Of a stretch of 64,000 nucleotides of DNA, positions 33,716 to 46,389 are shown one piece after another. Origin of the DNA: Candidatus Heimdallarchaeota archaeon (lineage in GTDB: Archaea; Asgardarchaeota; Heimdallarchaeia; JABLTI01); NCBI GenBank assembly GCA_018238155.1, contig JABCTZ010000036.1, positions 256,001 through 320,000 of the forward strand, written 5' to 3'. How positions within the stretch are numbered: the stretch's first letter is position 1; the number at the start of each line of letters is the position of its first letter. The position numbers and the translations under genes were made by a program. The notes beneath the pieces are model-generated. The model had not been told where the DNA came from and ran no database searches. It saw only the letters and a list, made by a program, of their open reading frames with translations.

Positions 33716-34018
33716 TTATTTATTATCAAGTACCAGTGGAAAAACAGTTGCTAGTGCATTGTAAATTGTTTGATTAACATAGCTATCGGCATCTGAAAGT
33801 ATTAACTCAAGTACTTTTTGAAGAACAGTTCCATCATTATCCTTGACCGTATCTTCACTGATAATTGCTGATAATGTTTGATGGGACGTGTGAACATATT
33901 TTCCTTCCTCAACTTTCTGATAACCAGCACTAACTAAAAGTTTGTGGATTTTCTTCAAATCTTTATCCAATTGTGGAGTTCCGATTCTAAGAATCATTGG
34001 TCTTTGTATTTCACCCAT
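33716..34018 (-). CDS. Hypothetical protein, closely coupled to the Arf-like gene
   Basis: 100-aa ORF 12 nt downstream of the Arf stop; GGAG SD overlaps that stop. Confidence 0.65.
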   Translation of the reverse strand: MGEIQRPMILRIGTPQLDKDLKKIHKLLVSAGYQKVEEGKYVHTSHQTLSAIISEDTVKDNDGTVLQKVLELILSDADSYVNQTIYNALATVFPLVLDNK

Positions 34019-34030
34019 TTTATTTTTCTC

Positions 34031-34570
34031 CTATAGTTTATCTAATTCAATAACAATCCATTTTATTGCTTCTTCTACACCTATTCCTTTAGTTGCTACA
34101 GTTGGTTGTATGTGCCAGCTGCGAGCACCCATTTTTTCCAGATTATCTAAATTACAAGCTTTGATAATTTCTTCTAATTGCATACATCCTTCAATATCTT
34201 GTTTATTTGCTATGACCAATAAGGGAACATCTGGAAATTGTGGATCAATCAGAACAGTCCAAAGCTCATTTTTTGCTTCTTCAATTCTTTCACGATCAGA
34301 TGAATCGATAACGAATATAATTGCACTTGCACCTCGCATTAATGTGCCCCATAAATTACGAAAATGCATTTGTCCTCCAAGATCAAAAACACTTAGATTG
34401 ACATTCTGTCTTTGTAAGACTTCTACATTGACACCTATCGTTGGAAGCGTTTCAATACTTTTCTCAAATCTAAGGAAATTTAACATGGTAGTTTTGCCAG
34501 CAGAATCGAGTCCTACAACTGCGATTTTAAATTGCTTTTTTTGTCGGAATAGTTTCTGTAAGAAGCTCAA
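34031..34570 (-). CDS. Arf-family small GTPase
   Basis: N-terminal amphipathic helix SFLQKLF, G1 GLDSAGKT, PTIG, DLGGQ, IFVIDSSDRERIEEA, NKQD, C-terminal G.EEAIKWI. Confidence 0.92.
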   Translation of the reverse strand: MSFLQKLFRQKKQFKIAVVGLDSAGKTTMLNFLRFEKSIETLPTIGVNVEVLQRQNVNLSVFDLGGQMHFRNLWGTLMRGASAIIFVIDSSDRERIEEAKNELWTVLIDPQFPDVPLLVIANKQDIEGCMQLEEIIKACNLDNLEKMGARSWHIQPTVATKGIGVEEAIKWIVIELDKL

Positions 34571-34743: not shown

Positions 34744-35493
34744 TCAAATAAGATTTACTGTAATTTCTATTGTATCTAGTCTTTCATCGAACTTTACGAT
34801 ACCTTTGTTATCTAGATTTCTAAGTGCCTTCAAAATAATAACTGGAGGTGTTTTTGAAACTGATTTCTTCAGTTCATCTAAACCCATTGCTTGTTTGCGA
34901 TATGCAAGCGTTGAAAGTATATCTACTTCAGGTATATCGATACGAACTTCCTTTAAGAGGAAATCCAATATGGGACTTACTTGAACATTTTGTTCTTCTT
35001 CTTTTTTAATTTCATCTAATTGTTGTTGAATTTGTACAATTTGATTATTCATACGGTTTTGAGTAACCTCTTTTTCTGAGGTTTTAGCTTTAATGTTCTC
35101 TTTCAATAAAATAATTTGATTTTCTGTTGAGGAGAGTTCTGTTTTTAACTTGTTGAGATTCTTTTCTATTTGTTCCATTTCTAAGGTCAATTTATTACTC
35201 TTTTCTTGTTCTTCTGAAATATTTAATTTAGCACGTTCAGTTTGTTCATTTAATGTGTTAATATCACTTAGTAAACTCTTCTTTTCATTTTGAAGTTGTA
35301 TTTCATCTCGTTTATGATCATTGAGATTCTTTTCTAAATTTTGAGCATTTTGTTCTGCTTTTTCTAGATGAGAGAGTGCTTCTTTGATTTCTAGAAGAGT
35401 TGCTTCAATTTTTTGATGAATGTTTTGGTCCAATTTTTCTAAGCGTTCCTTTTCGGTTAAAATGCTTCTCTTTAAACTAACTAAGTCTGTCAT
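34744..35493 (-). CDS. Coiled-coil protein with C-terminal winged-helix domain
   Basis: ~170-aa heptad-rich region, then EVDILSTLAY...LDELKKSV...ILKALRNLDNKGIVKFD (wHTH pattern). Confidence 0.75.
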   Translation of the reverse strand: MTDLVSLKRSILTEKERLEKLDQNIHQKIEATLLEIKEALSHLEKAEQNAQNLEKNLNDHKRDEIQLQNEKKSLLSDINTLNEQTERAKLNISEEQEKSNKLTLEMEQIEKNLNKLKTELSSTENQIILLKENIKAKTSEKEVTQNRMNNQIVQIQQQLDEIKKEEEQNVQVSPILDFLLKEVRIDIPEVDILSTLAYRKQAMGLDELKKSVSKTPPVIILKALRNLDNKGIVKFDERLDTIEITVNLI

Positions 35494-35505
35494 TCAGTAT
35501 ACCTC

Positions 35506-36252
35506 CTAAAATTTTAAACTCCTATCAATGGTAATCGCACCTGATGATGAATCATATGTAATAAGTTTCCTTTTCATCAAACCTTCTAGTGTTTTTATTA
35601 TTAATTCATCTGAAATCCCGGTAACTTTTGAAATGGTACTTAAATCAGTATTTTTTCGACCTTCAAGTGAATTAATAATTTTTAATTCATTAAACTCAAC
35701 ATGATTTTTCTTTATGAGATATTCAAGAGCCATTCTTTCCCCTTTTATTCTTCTAAGGGTATCTTTTTTCGCTTCAATTTTCTTTTCAAACTCAAGGATC
35801 TTTTTTTCACTTGAGCTAACAATTTCTACAATATTATTAGATATTTTTTTGTTCTCTTCTGAAAAGTTTGAATATTCATCTTTAGCTCCTGCTTGCTTGT
35901 TTTTCGTTTCATTTAATTCTGAATTTATTTCTCTAAGTCGTGTTTCTAATTTAGCTCTATTGTCAACAAGTTCTGATAAATTTGATTGTGCTCCGGATAA
36001 TAGTGTTTCATTTGAACTCTTCTCATCTTTTAGTGTTGTAACCTCTCGAGTAAGAGCATCATTAGTTGATAAATAGTTAGAAATTTCATCTTTACGTTTC
36101 TTTTCAAAATTAATCAGATCCTCTATTGGATTTTTTAAATCTTCTAATCCTTTCTTAGTAACTTTAATTTTTTCTTCAAAATTACTGTTTAATTCTTGAA
36201 TTGTGAGCTCTGATTTTTTAATTGACGATTGTACTTCTGATATATCTGTCAT
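35506..36252 (-). CDS. Coiled-coil protein with C-terminal winged-helix domain (paralogue of neighbour)
   Basis: Heptad-rich region, then ELKIINSL...LSTISKVTGISDELIIKTLEGLMKRKLITYD. ATG 36252 follows GGAG. Confidence 0.75.
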   Translation of the reverse strand: MTDISEVQSSIKKSELTIQELNSNFEEKIKVTKKGLEDLKNPIEDLINFEKKRKDEISNYLSTNDALTREVTTLKDEKSSNETLLSGAQSNLSELVDNRAKLETRLREINSELNETKNKQAGAKDEYSNFSEENKKISNNIVEIVSSSEKKILEFEKKIEAKKDTLRRIKGERMALEYLIKKNHVEFNELKIINSLEGRKNTDLSTISKVTGISDELIIKTLEGLMKRKLITYDSSSGAITIDRSLKF

Positions 36253-36436: not shown

Positions 36437-37822
36437 TTAATCCATATATACATGAGATGCAACTCGTTCTATTACTTCAAGCATTGCAGGTGTATGTTTT
36501 GCTCTAATTGCGTTAACAAAATCATCAGATGGCAAATTTAGTTTCTTAATTTTAGCCCAATCTTGAGAAATCTTCTCTATGAGCGAAACACGGTTAATCA
36601 ATAATGATACACATTCATTATGTTTCTGTTTGGTCATTGTTTGAATGATGTCATTTAAATAAATTGATGTCAGACCTTGGGAAACTTTCTTTTTATCCAT
36701 ATCTAGAATAACTTCATTTGAATAATAAGATAATAAATCTCGATTAACTCTGATAATATCTGCATCTCTAGGATGAATAAAATCTGCAGTATAATTTACT
36801 ATTCTAAGTTCTCTCTCAGGGGCAAAACATTGGATGGTATCAAGAATCATATTTAGTAAAACTTGATTTTTATCTGATTCTGGATCCAATACGATTAGTA
36901 GTAATTTTCTGCTAACTATTGCATCAAAAACTTGATCCATGCCTTTTTTAATTTGTTTAAGTAAGAATGGCATGTTTCCTTTGTCAGTATTTCTTTTTGT
37001 AACTTCTACCCCAAGAGTTCTTTGTGTATCTGGGGTTGAAGTTTGTGGTTGTTGTGTTGTAGTTGATGTTTGAATAGTAGTTTCTACAGGAGAGCTAACA
37101 GGTGCAGGTGCTGGAGTTGGTGTTGCACTTAAAGTAGCTGCTGCTGCAGGGGGAGGAGAATCTGAAAAAGATTTAACTGAATAATAAACTTTATTCCCCA
37201 TTTTTGTGGTGTAAAGAAAACCAGCATTCAATATTTCTTGGATTGTTGCTACAGCTTGTTGAGCTGAACTTTCAGTCATAGCTATGACTTCTTGAAAAGA
37301 TGCAATTTTAGCATCTAAAATTGAACGAGCTGTTTTTTGTAATCTTTGAGGAAGTTCCATAACACTAAGAGTATCTAATTCTCTTCTACTCCCAGACTTG
37401 GTCATTATTCTATTCTCAAAAGCACTTCGTAATTGGTCTAATTTAGCTACAAATCCCTGGAAAACTGAAACATCATCACCTTGCCAGTTCTCAACATAAT
37501 CTTGAGGGAAGATTGCATAGAAAAGTGTTTCAAGTTCAGGAAGTAAAATATCAAGTATTCCTTCTTCATTTGGATCAGAACTAACAACAAAAAATGCCGG
37601 ACCTACTTGCTTGTAAGTTAGTTTTAAATCACCAATCAATTCTTCATTTTGTTGTCCAATACTAACTTTGTTTAAAATGGAATCAATGATTGGTTGAAAA
37701 TCTCCCAAAGAATTTCCTTTTAATTGTGCTTGACCTGGTTCATAATTTCTGTAAACTAACGGAAAATTATTCTTTAAAATTAATACTCGTTTTATCAAAA
37801 CTTTCTTCTCCGAATAAAGCAA
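36437..37822 (-). CDS. Longin-like + wHTH + Pro/Thr linker + DENN/folliculin-like multidomain protein
   Basis: N-terminal longin-like pattern (VLIL..G/FPLVYR...FFVVSSD...F...F); wHTH (LPQRLQKTA...GFLYTTKMGNKVYY); PAPAP/TTTQQP linker; C-terminal DENN-like core. The start may be TTG 37798. Confidence 0.6.
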   Translation of the reverse strand: MLYSEKKVLIKRVLILKNNFPLVYRNYEPGQAQLKGNSLGDFQPIIDSILNKVSIGQQNEELIGDLKLTYKQVGPAFFVVSSDPNEEGILDILLPELETLFYAIFPQDYVENWQGDDVSVFQGFVAKLDQLRSAFENRIMTKSGSRRELDTLSVMELPQRLQKTARSILDAKIASFQEVIAMTESSAQQAVATIQEILNAGFLYTTKMGNKVYYSVKSFSDSPPPAAAATLSATPTPAPAPVSSPVETTIQTSTTTQQPQTSTPDTQRTLGVEVTKRNTDKGNMPFLLKQIKKGMDQVFDAIVSRKLLLIVLDPESDKNQVLLNMILDTIQCFAPERELRIVNYTADFIHPRDADIIRVNRDLLSYYSNEVILDMDKKKVSQGLTSIYLNDIIQTMTKQKHNECVSLLINRVSLIEKISQDWAKIKKLNLPSDDFVNAIRAKHTPAMLEVIERVASHVYMD

Positions 37823-44076: not shown

Positions 44077-44628
44077 TTGAAGTTTGGAGTAATAAATGTG
44101 AAACTATTAGCAAAAGTTGTCTTAGCGGGAGATGGAGGAGTAGGAAAAACTACATTAATTCATCGATACATCACAAATAGTTTTATCGATTCCACTAAAA
44201 TAACAATCGGTGCTGCTTTTCATACGCACGAAATAGAAACAGAAGAACATAGCGTTTTAGTTCAAATATGGGATTTAGGTGGTCAAGAGCAATTTAAACA
44301 GATGGGCATTTTTGACAGATATTTCAAAGGTACCTCAGTTTCAGTTATTATGTTTGATCTAACTCGATTAAGTACAATTGAAAGTATCTATGAATGGGCT
44401 GATTTGGCTTTAGGTGCAAGTAACACTAAGATAATTCTTGTAGGTGGAAAAAAAGATTTAGCAGGTGGTATTATCTTTAATGAAGAAACATTCCCTGAGT
44501 TGTTTGAAAAATACGATTTCATTTCTTATCATGAAACATCATCAGCAACTGGAGAAGGTGTTCCTGAAGTTTTTCAATCAATTGCACAAACTATAATTGA
44601 TTTAACATTGGAGAAAAAATCTCTATAA
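44077..44628 (+). CDS. Rab-like small GTPase
   Basis: GDGGVGKT, TIG, WDLGGQ, atypical G4 GGKKD, TSSATG. The start may be GTG 44098. Confidence 0.9.
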   Translation: MKFGVINVKLLAKVVLAGDGGVGKTTLIHRYITNSFIDSTKITIGAAFHTHEIETEEHSVLVQIWDLGGQEQFKQMGIFDRYFKGTSVSVIMFDLTRLSTIESIYEWADLALGASNTKIILVGGKKDLAGGIIFNEETFPELFEKYDFISYHETSSATGEGVPEVFQSIAQTIIDLTLEKKSL

Positions 44629-44774
44629 ATCGATTATTTATCAAAGTTATTCAATTTAACATTAAATAGTATTTTAAAGTATTAATTATTTATAAATACG
44701 ATAATTATATATTGTAGAAGAACTAGATTCAATCGAAAATTACCTAAGTAAGAACAATTTGGAGATTCAATAGA

Positions 44775-45554
44775 ATGCCTACAAGTCCAGTAATTCAAGA
44801 ATTGAAATCAATTATAAGCTCAATTATATCACAAGGAAAAACTGGTAACATGCGGGCAGTTGTACAATCTCTTCATGAATTTGAAAAAAGGACAAAACAC
44901 AAAAAGAATGATCCTGCAATTCAAGTATTATCAGCACAAGCTTATCGGCATTCTTTAGAACCATTTGGTGTTGCCAAGAAATTCAAAGATGTTGAACTGA
45001 TGATAATAAAAATAGAACACCTTCTGAAAGAAAATCCAACATCTGAGGATATGCAAGAGATTTTCAGTGAAGCATTGAATGCTGCGATTTATCATTACAT
45101 AATGAATGAAAAGGAAAAGGAAATTCATCAAACTTTGACACGCCTCGGTGAATTTGCAAATAAAAATCAAGTAAATCCATTCGTACAATTTAATTACGCA
45201 ATGTCTCTTTCTAGAGTGGCAGAATATTTTGTGTCAAAGGAAAATAAAGAAGTTGCTTACAATATCTTATGGGAAATTATTGGTATAGTAACGTTCTATC
45301 CTGGAAAAGAAATCTTAACACAAGTTAGCGAAGGATTATTACAATGTGTGAAAATTGCTGGTGGTAGACTAACTATGATTGAATTAGATGATTTAGCTAA
45401 TCGAATTGATGAATTCATAAATTTCACAAACGAATTTGGAATTCAACAAAAATTAACTACTTGTCAGGGACTAATTGTTCAATTTGTTGCTGGATTACGA
45501 ATGAGAAACGGATATAGTCCTGATGGGAAACTACAAAGAATCTACAAGAAATAG
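44775..45554 (+). CDS. Hypothetical all-alpha (solenoid-like) protein
   Basis: GGAG SD; repeated amphipathic helix pairs. Confidence 0.6.
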   Translation: MPTSPVIQELKSIISSIISQGKTGNMRAVVQSLHEFEKRTKHKKNDPAIQVLSAQAYRHSLEPFGVAKKFKDVELMIIKIEHLLKENPTSEDMQEIFSEALNAAIYHYIMNEKEKEIHQTLTRLGEFANKNQVNPFVQFNYAMSLSRVAEYFVSKENKEVAYNILWEIIGIVTFYPGKEILTQVSEGLLQCVKIAGGRLTMIELDDLANRIDEFINFTNEFGIQQKLTTCQGLIVQFVAGLRMRNGYSPDGKLQRIYKK

Positions 45555-45567
45555 TTTGATTATCAAT

Positions 45568-46389
45568 CTAGGCACTTTTTTCAAGCATTTGATGTAATAT
45601 TGATTCTAGATGGGCTATTTGAACAATACCTACTAAATGCCTTCCTCCTGCGATAATTGTCGGATAGGCAGTAACTCCATACGCATCTACTATTTGAGGG
45701 TCGGTTTCTGCATCAATCGTTTCAACCTCTAAAGCAAACTTTTTAGCAACTTTCTCAATGTGATTTAAAGCAACTTTTGACCATGCATCTCCTTTCTTAA
45801 CAAAGAAGAGAATCTTAGTAGATATTTTTTCAATAATTTTCGGTGAAATATCAGGGATAGGAATAACACCTGACACAATTTGTTGAATAATTAAATTAAA
45901 AGCAGCATCAACATTTGTATCTGTTTTTGCACTTGTGAAAATCAAATTAGCTTTTGCTGCGGGAGTATCACCTAGAGTTTTTAGATTAAAAGATAATGGG
46001 AGTTGCTTTGTTTGTGCTAAATCGAGTTTAGTTCCAACTAAAATTACCGGAACATCCTTTTGGTTATTAGCCGTTCTAAGATCTTCATACCAACCTGATA
46101 AATTGTTAAACGTTTCAGGTTTAGTTAAGTCATAAGTTAATAGAGCTCCAGATGCCCCTTGCAAGTATCGCAAACCAATTTTCCGTCTGCTCTTTTGTCC
46201 TGCGATATCCCAAATCATTAATTTTACTTCTGCATCCGGGTATTCAAAAGTTCTAACATAAAAATTTAAACCCAAAGTGGTCATATAATCTCTGTGAAAT
46301 CTATCGTAAATATATCTTTGAACTAAACTTGTTTTACCTACTCCCGGATCGCCAAGTAAAACGATTTTTCTTTGGTACAATTTTGTCAA
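45568..46389 (-). CDS. Rab-like small GTPase fused to a C-terminal thioredoxin-like domain
   Basis: GDPGVGKT, TLG, WDIAGQ, TKLD, TSAK; C-terminal ...IDAETDPQIVDAYGVTAYPTII...G. Confidence 0.85.
   Translation of the reverse strand: MTKLYQRKIVLLGDPGVGKTSLVQRYIYDRFHRDYMTTLGLNFYVRTFEYPDAEVKLMIWDIAGQKSRRKIGLRYLQGASGALLTYDLTKPETFNNLSGWYEDLRTANNQKDVPVILVGTKLDLAQTKQLPLSFNLKTLGDTPAAKANLIFTSAKTDTNVDAAFNLIIQQIVSGVIPIPDISPKIIEKISTKILFFVKKGDAWSKVALNHIEKVAKKFALEVETIDAETDPQIVDAYGVTAYPTIIAGGRHLVGIVQIAHLESILHQMLEKSA

Follow-up and report, generated by a model that had tools for sequence, protein, structure and literature searches.

Eukaryotic kinetochore and meiotic coiled-coil heterodimers tether or space cellular structures, and obligate heteropairing is also a property of keratins. 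MarR-family regulators are homodimers formed via short flanking helices, with a basic wing that contacts DNA. Hop2–Mnd1 is a parallel heterodimer of paralogues of ~20 % identity with juxtaposed winged-helix domains (WHDs) (PDB 4y66; PMC4402518). Its WHDs are N-terminal and as a pair bind DNA, whilst its rod is ~15 nm long and comprises three kinked leucine zippers with capping helices (PMC4402518). In CdvB and ESCRT-II the winged helix (wH) also serves to dock proteins, and proteins combining a wH with a coiled coil, such as arCOG11741, are encoded in archaeal ESCRT loci (PMC10936438).

The window analysed herein (the whole 64 000 nt stretch of Candidatus Heimdallarchaeota DNA, from a Heimdallarchaeia metagenome-assembled genome) contains two adjacent genes, A and B, with the following features.

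35506..36252, minus strand: gene A, 248 aa, with a coiled-coil rod, a mildly basic neck and a C-terminal winged helix; the upstream gene in all pairs
35710..36252, minus strand: A rod, residues 1–181, with heptad positions a = 29, 36, ... and d = 32, 39, ...
35509..35691, minus strand: A winged-helix head, residues 188–248
35494..35507, minus strand: A–B spacer, 12 nt plus an AGGAGG Shine–Dalgarno-like site overlapping the stop codon of A
34744..35493, minus strand: gene B, 249 aa, with a coiled-coil rod, an acidic neck and a C-terminal winged helix
34984..35493, minus strand: B rod, residues 1–170, with heptad register and discontinuities identical to those of A
34933..34974, minus strand: B neck, a helix at residues 174–181 plus an acidic loop
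34747..34932, minus strand: B winged-helix head, residues 188–249

A sequence-only reading of this DNA had described two genes 12 nt apart, encoding 248 and 249 aa, each with a long coiled coil and an alignable C-terminal winged helix–turn–helix (wHTH), and this description is confirmed. By AlphaFold2 and by sequence, each protein consists of a heptad coiled coil of ~170–180 residues followed by a C-terminal wH; both heads are wHTH domains by fold and sequence matches, and are homologous to one another (hhalign 98.8 %). In the AlphaFold2 model of B, residues 2–170 form one straight helix, with pLDDT >90 over most of it, and the length of the rod is estimated at 25–26 nm. The heptads of A run unbroken from residue 29 to 148, with register shifts near residues 25–29 and 148–155. 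A precedes B in 140 of 140 unique pairs, and the intergenic gap falls between −4 and ~29 nt in nearly all of them (−1 in 48/140); the two genes are probably translationally coupled. A scan of the locus for promoters and terminators returned results at chance level.

When two helices form a parallel coiled coil, each g position lies opposite the e′ position five residues further along the partner chain. Both rods display a hydrophobic period of 3.5 residues, with shared register and shared discontinuities near residues 25–29 and 148–155. As common ancestry alone could explain a shared register, inter-helix charges were tested, with g–e′ charges scored over 16 heptads in 140 pairs. Cognate A–B combinations have a mean of 6.7 attractive and 2.2 repulsive g–e′ pairs, compared to 2.0 attractive versus 2.5 repulsive for AA and 1.9 versus 2.0 for BB (per side); the net attractive values are +4.6 to +5.3 for cognate A–B, −0.9 for AA and +0.1 for BB. 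The net falls to ~0 when the A–B register is shifted by 7, 14 or 21 residues, and to between −0.1 and −0.4 when A is combined with B from other genomes or clades (−0.12 ± 0.33 for B of another genome). The two g–e′ classes rank first and second amongst 147 heptad-pair classes (0.19 and 0.14; sd 0.03), and the best antiparallel register reaches 0.046, about a quarter of the g–e′ value. With each clade (<30 % identity) counted once, cognate A–B exceeds shifted and foreign controls in 17 of 20. In 5000 permutations within classes the value of +5.3 was never reached, whichever half of the rod was taken, and the Heimdallarchaeota pair by itself has nine attractive versus one repulsive g–e′ pair (P=0.004), although the clades are partly dependent and the P-values therefore overstate the significance. 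In the register used, no g–e′ signal is seen for a longer copy of the pair, of Lokiarchaeia type, or for one other clade. Phylogeny would hardly produce charges specific to a single geometry and to the cognate partner and, since complementarity is confined to cognate chains that lie parallel and in register, A and B very likely form a parallel, in-register heterodimer.

The two chains were also compared in other ways. Mutual information computed with 20 letters places 38 of the top 200 values on the diagonal versus 16 expected, a modest excess, and with a reduced alphabet there is no diagonal enrichment. The necks complement each other too: B carries a net negative charge over residues 170–191 in all clades (mean −3.8), and the counterpart in A is positive in 77 %. 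Co-folding in ESMFold2 scored 0.58 for A–B versus 0.00 for the best control, with at least 98 % contact agreement between runs and a partner pLDDT of at least 84; 58 of 80 solved complexes and 2 of 110 mismatches attained the mark, but scores of 0.60 or under account for only 7 of the 80 solved complexes and for both mismatches. Co-folding is accordingly rated as weak support for the pairing. A widening of the hydrophobic stripe at the N-terminus, which might hint at a tetramer, is only slight.

With regard to distribution, profile searches for A and B across 301 Asgard genomes gave strong matches to both genes in 144 genomes and no strong match to either in 145; A stands alone in 1 genome and B in 11, and the B-only cases that were inspected lie at the end of a contig or contain a broken frame. 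Amongst the carriers that have a name are Odinarchaeum yellowstonii (WEU40272.1), Baldrarchaeia and lineages of the Heimdall group, and most members of a large family (f14, inferred Lokiarchaeia) also carry the pair. Searches of 41 family f11 genomes (inferred Thorarchaeia) did not find it, nor was it found in several closed genomes, including one of 4.4 Mb and one of 6.0 Mb. In near-complete genomes within carrier families both genes are missing together, and such joint absence from closed or near-complete genomes indicates that cells can do without the pair and that its two genes are retained or lost together. A tree built on the C-terminal 100 columns of A and B splits all A from all B by one branch (100/98), with largely mirrored subtrees, which places the duplication before the split of the carrier classes. 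Across the 140 pairs the median identity between lineages is only 18–19 %, and the invariant neck leucine falls at residue 178–181 in ~90 % of both chains.

Beyond the Asgard genomes, a representative library of 1.84 billion entries was searched with a Heimdall-based profile, and the matches checked by name were Asgard or unnamed; as far as searched, the pair is Asgard-restricted. Neither Pfam, NCBIfam nor the ESM Atlas supplies a named family for A or B, with the ESM Atlas clusters consisting of unnamed archaeal proteins, Promethearchaeota being commonest, and no paper on the family was found within the literature library searched. Together, the g–e′ charges, the register and the joint presence and loss of the genes, along with the weak co-folding result, strongly support the earlier proposal that the chains run parallel in a heterodimeric rod of ~25 nm bearing two wH heads. 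We conclude that A and B constitute a real and ancient Asgard rod, very probably heterodimeric and as yet unnamed, that varies a known architecture.

Several variants of the pair were also observed. Some f14 genomes carry a longer version (~284–289 aa; L165–L167), followed by a small gene that appears longin/roadblock-like by eye. Two copies exist in some lineages, either in tandem (f17) or dispersed (f18) (L042:6566-9679 and L113; L139 and L140), and for these duplicated pairs the cognate score equals or exceeds the swapped score in most cases of a small sample. At L046:5989-6618, where a contig ends, a B-type C-terminus follows a ParB-like N-terminal peptide, probably through misassembly.

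A strictly kept rod length, the obligate pairing of unlike chains, the net acidic charge of the rod and weak matches to the Pfam Filament and crescentin families would all suit a heterodimer that is the building block of an intermediate-filament-like polymer decorated by wH heads. We regard such a polymer as very improbable, however, as these matches lie below cut-off, as do those to SMC and ATG16, and are of a kind that coiled coils in general give, the rod is not divided by linkers into segments as intermediate-filament proteins are, and no antiparallel charge register is prominent. SMC and Rad50 proteins differ in possessing an ABC-ATPase head and a hinge or hook, whereas A and B are ~250 aa, have no ATPase domain and match such coils far below cut-off.

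The genes surrounding the pair include an Arf gene directly downstream and a RadA-like gene at a distance of 2.9 kb, both of which the sequence-only reading had put forward as leads, together with the neighbouring 461-aa gene. These leads did not hold up: of 44 larger loci, only 3 have the RadA-like, Arf, Kae1, 100-aa and 461-aa genes beside the pair, and these 3 belong to the family of this genome, and no neighbour recurs beyond the family level in 40 loci of ~13 kb (neighbours were clustered and read, and in part annotated by profile). In other families the neighbours, as read from their sequences, are unrelated, e.g. ABC transporters, a radical-SAM gene and glutamate dehydrogenase. As the RadA and Arf linkage is confined to one family, local context provides no evidence for a role in recombination or trafficking; moreover, the genome holds 4 RadA-like and ~14 Arf-like matches.

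Some of these neighbours have features of their own. Positions 33716-34570 of the window encode a GTPase of the Arf family and, after it, a conserved protein of 100 aa; both are linked to the pair in this family only. The 461-aa protein (36437-37822) has a Pro/Thr-rich linker, is conserved in the family and has 4 matches in the genome; the label 'DENN-like' given to it finds no support in Pfam, NCBIfam or PDB sequences. Two more small-GTPase-like genes lie at 44077-46389, the second apparently with a C-terminal thioredoxin-like extension (by eye).

In build the known system nearest to the pair is Hop2–Mnd1, each being a paralogue pair that forms (for A–B, by computation) a parallel coiled-coil heterodimer with two wH domains at one end, but the polarity is reversed, with the wH C-terminal in both chains of A–B (residues 188–248) and N-terminal in Hop2–Mnd1. 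The rods also differ, that of A–B being one straight helix of ~170 residues and ~25 nm, and that of Hop2–Mnd1 ~15 nm, kinked and capped. Neither TBPIP (PF07106) nor Mnd1 (PF03962) is among the listed Pfam matches of A and B, the Mnd1 structure 4y66 appears only at E-values of 0.075–0.5 amongst generic wH matches, and a search of the same genome for Hop2 and Mnd1 returned nothing over cut-off; the sole weak match therein reads as a DtxR-like metal regulator. The likeness to an inverted Hop2–Mnd1 that had been suggested for this locus accordingly stands for the architecture, but lacks a specific sequence link: the pair resembles Hop2–Mnd1 in build and is not a member. That the heads hold dsDNA whilst the rod engages a RadA filament, activating the recombinase, would fit this common design and the nearby RadA-like gene, and yet is the least probable of the roles considered, with only a very slight chance of being right. 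Besides the reversed polarity and the dissimilar rod, the linkage to RadA does not extend past one family, the heads are not basic, and the pair is repeatedly lost although RadA is a core archaeal gene.

ESCRT components offer a second comparison. Like CdvB/ESCRT-III (2xvc), A and B have a helical body followed by a C-terminal wH that perhaps docks a protein, at a similar overall length, but they lack the Snf7 helical-hairpin core (the AlphaFold2 helix is straight, with canonical two-stranded heptads), they are an obligate two-gene heteropair, and they have no ESCRT gene neighbourhood. Specifically, neither Vps4/CdvA nor other ESCRT genes recur beside the pair in the 40 loci of ~13 kb. ESCRT-II (Vps22/36 and Vps25) has tandem wH domains per chain and no long rod, in contrast to the single wH of each A and B chain; a separate EAP30-family gene is located elsewhere in the genome. 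Fold searches yielded generic wH matches alone, none of them prominent, a result that excludes no wH family. The resemblance to Ska1 and ESCRT-II claimed by the sequence-only reading was singled out by no sequence or fold search, and the absence of Ska1, which has a microtubule-binding C-terminal domain and a trimeric N-terminal coil, from the listed matches does not amount to its exclusion. An adaptor or tether of the membrane-trafficking or ESCRT machinery, partnered by the Arf GTPase encoded nearby or by wH proteins of ESCRT, draws on the adjacent Arf gene of this family, the docking role of wH modules and the wH–coiled-coil proteins in archaeal ESCRT loci (PMC10936438), and a weak match to the CdvB wH 2xvc (E-value 0.03–0.04). 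We nonetheless consider it improbable, as the Arf neighbour is limited to those 3 loci and the genome has ~14 Arf-like matches, there is no recurrent ESCRT cluster, ESCRT-III hairpin or membrane anchor, and 2xvc ranks amongst generic wH matches.

The heads themselves are closest in sequence and structure matches, albeit weakly, to wHTH domains of the MarR, Lrp and Lrs14 types, with 32 of 83 B members matching the MarR profile at E ≤0.01. Whilst the fold and a B arginine at the usual MarR-like DNA-contact position of helix 3 are held in common with these regulators, A and B are a heteropair joined via a 25-nm N-terminal rod rather than by short dimerization or ligand domains, and their wing is not basic. 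Conservation is asymmetric between the chains: in A it concerns mainly core residues, whereas the wH of B bears the most conserved surface of the pair, with E189 invariant (140/140), K209 kept in 94 %, P216–P217, and R222-T223-x-K225, position 222 being mostly Arg. Helix 3 of B opens with Pro-Pro and aliphatic residues.

It is possible, if rather unlikely, that the heads of this same heterodimeric rod bind DNA, with rods arranged tail-to-tail so as to bridge or space it in a nucleoid-organizing or segregation-accessory role. The MarR, Lrp and Lrs14 resemblance, the retention by B of K209, R222/T223 and K225, a mildly basic helix 3 in both chains, and DNA binding by the paired WHDs of Hop2–Mnd1 (PMC4402518) argue in this direction. 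Conversely, the wings are slightly acidic (net charge ~−0.5), and the heads are neutral to acidic, at +0.1 for A and −1.1 for B, whilst the median over 24 further wH-like domains from the same genome is +2, a crude comparison. Nor does the pair track the kleisin ScpA (present in 9/21 genomes with the pair and 9/20 without), and a core segregation machine would not be missing from several closed genomes; a phyletic comparison with FtsZ/tubulin was uninformative, as these are universal.

Kariarchaeaceae-type proteins contain 3–7 tandem neck and wH units and no rod, demonstrating that the head is a portable module. Such tandem proteins of 400–850 aa, related to the B head and in one case named as Kariarchaeaceae, were seen at L169:5001-7556, L170:5001-6251 and L171:5001-7367. 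Given this portability, the neutral-to-acidic heads, the slightly acidic wings and the Pro/aliphatic start of helix 3, a protein-binding head is favoured. Our best guess, which we hold tentatively, is therefore a fixed-length spacer whose B head binds a putative protein partner; we favour this over DNA bridging, with trafficking, filament and recombinase roles less likely. In such a spacer, A and B would be co-translated as obligate partners, and their rods in all likelihood zip up parallel and in register into one coiled coil of ~25–26 nm. The basic A neck and acidic B neck would probably clamp the two wH heads side by side at the C-terminal tip, where the protein partner may be gripped by a conserved surface on the head of B (E189, K209, P216–P217 and the start of helix 3). 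The N-terminal ~45 residues could anchor a second structure or another rod, and the complex as a whole may serve as a non-essential spacer or tether of fixed length.

Asgard archaea, the closest prokaryotic relatives of eukaryotes, possess long cellular protrusions and complex envelopes. Homology searches fail on coiled coils, and for this reason most Asgard structural proteins have no assignment. The rod of A and B has varied in length by only a few residues from a time preceding the separation of the Heimdall, Loki, Odin and Baldr lineages, and so ancient and constant a length implies that a conserved distance is being set. Division of the rod between obligate heterodimeric paralogues is a eukaryote-like design already present in Asgard archaea. 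As the proteins are small and soluble, and include a copy from the thermophilic Odinarchaeum (WEU40272.1 and its upstream neighbour), the question of partners is directly testable.

The same genome also encodes a single-gene relative of 159 aa (L174:5311-5787; G000 C41:287310-287783), which can be aligned over its neck and head to A as well as to B (hhalign 96–97 %). This family is present in 67 of 72 high-quality Asgard genomes, including ones without the pair, and has a strongly conserved head but belongs to no named family. It shares with A and B the homologous neck and C-terminal wH as well as a Pro/Ala-rich start of helix 3, but differs in being a single gene with a shorter, variable rod (~90–160 aa) and a more basic head. 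The contrast between this variable rod and the fixed length of A–B indicates that the latter is a real constraint, and the single-gene family may represent a homodimeric ancestral state. In the source genus, the 159-aa gene lies near RpoK and an EAP30 (Vps22/36) gene. A broader and more speculative proposal, which we rate as unlikely, is that the pair is one branch of an unrecognized Asgard-wide superfamily, with a universal single-gene form, a fixed-length heterodimer and tandem-head derivatives, that would together make up a dedicated structural system: a 25-nm ruler tethering the chromosome to the cytoskeleton or membrane, or spacing two cellular structures.

A fourth, more distant protein with a coiled coil and C-terminal wH (~209–217 aa) is encoded at L173:6906-7556 (G000 C21:142905-143555), ~4 kb from genes for UEV-Vps23 and Vps28. 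In Odinarchaeum, a look-alike of this fourth protein (L150:11818-12495) is located 4 kb from the pair.
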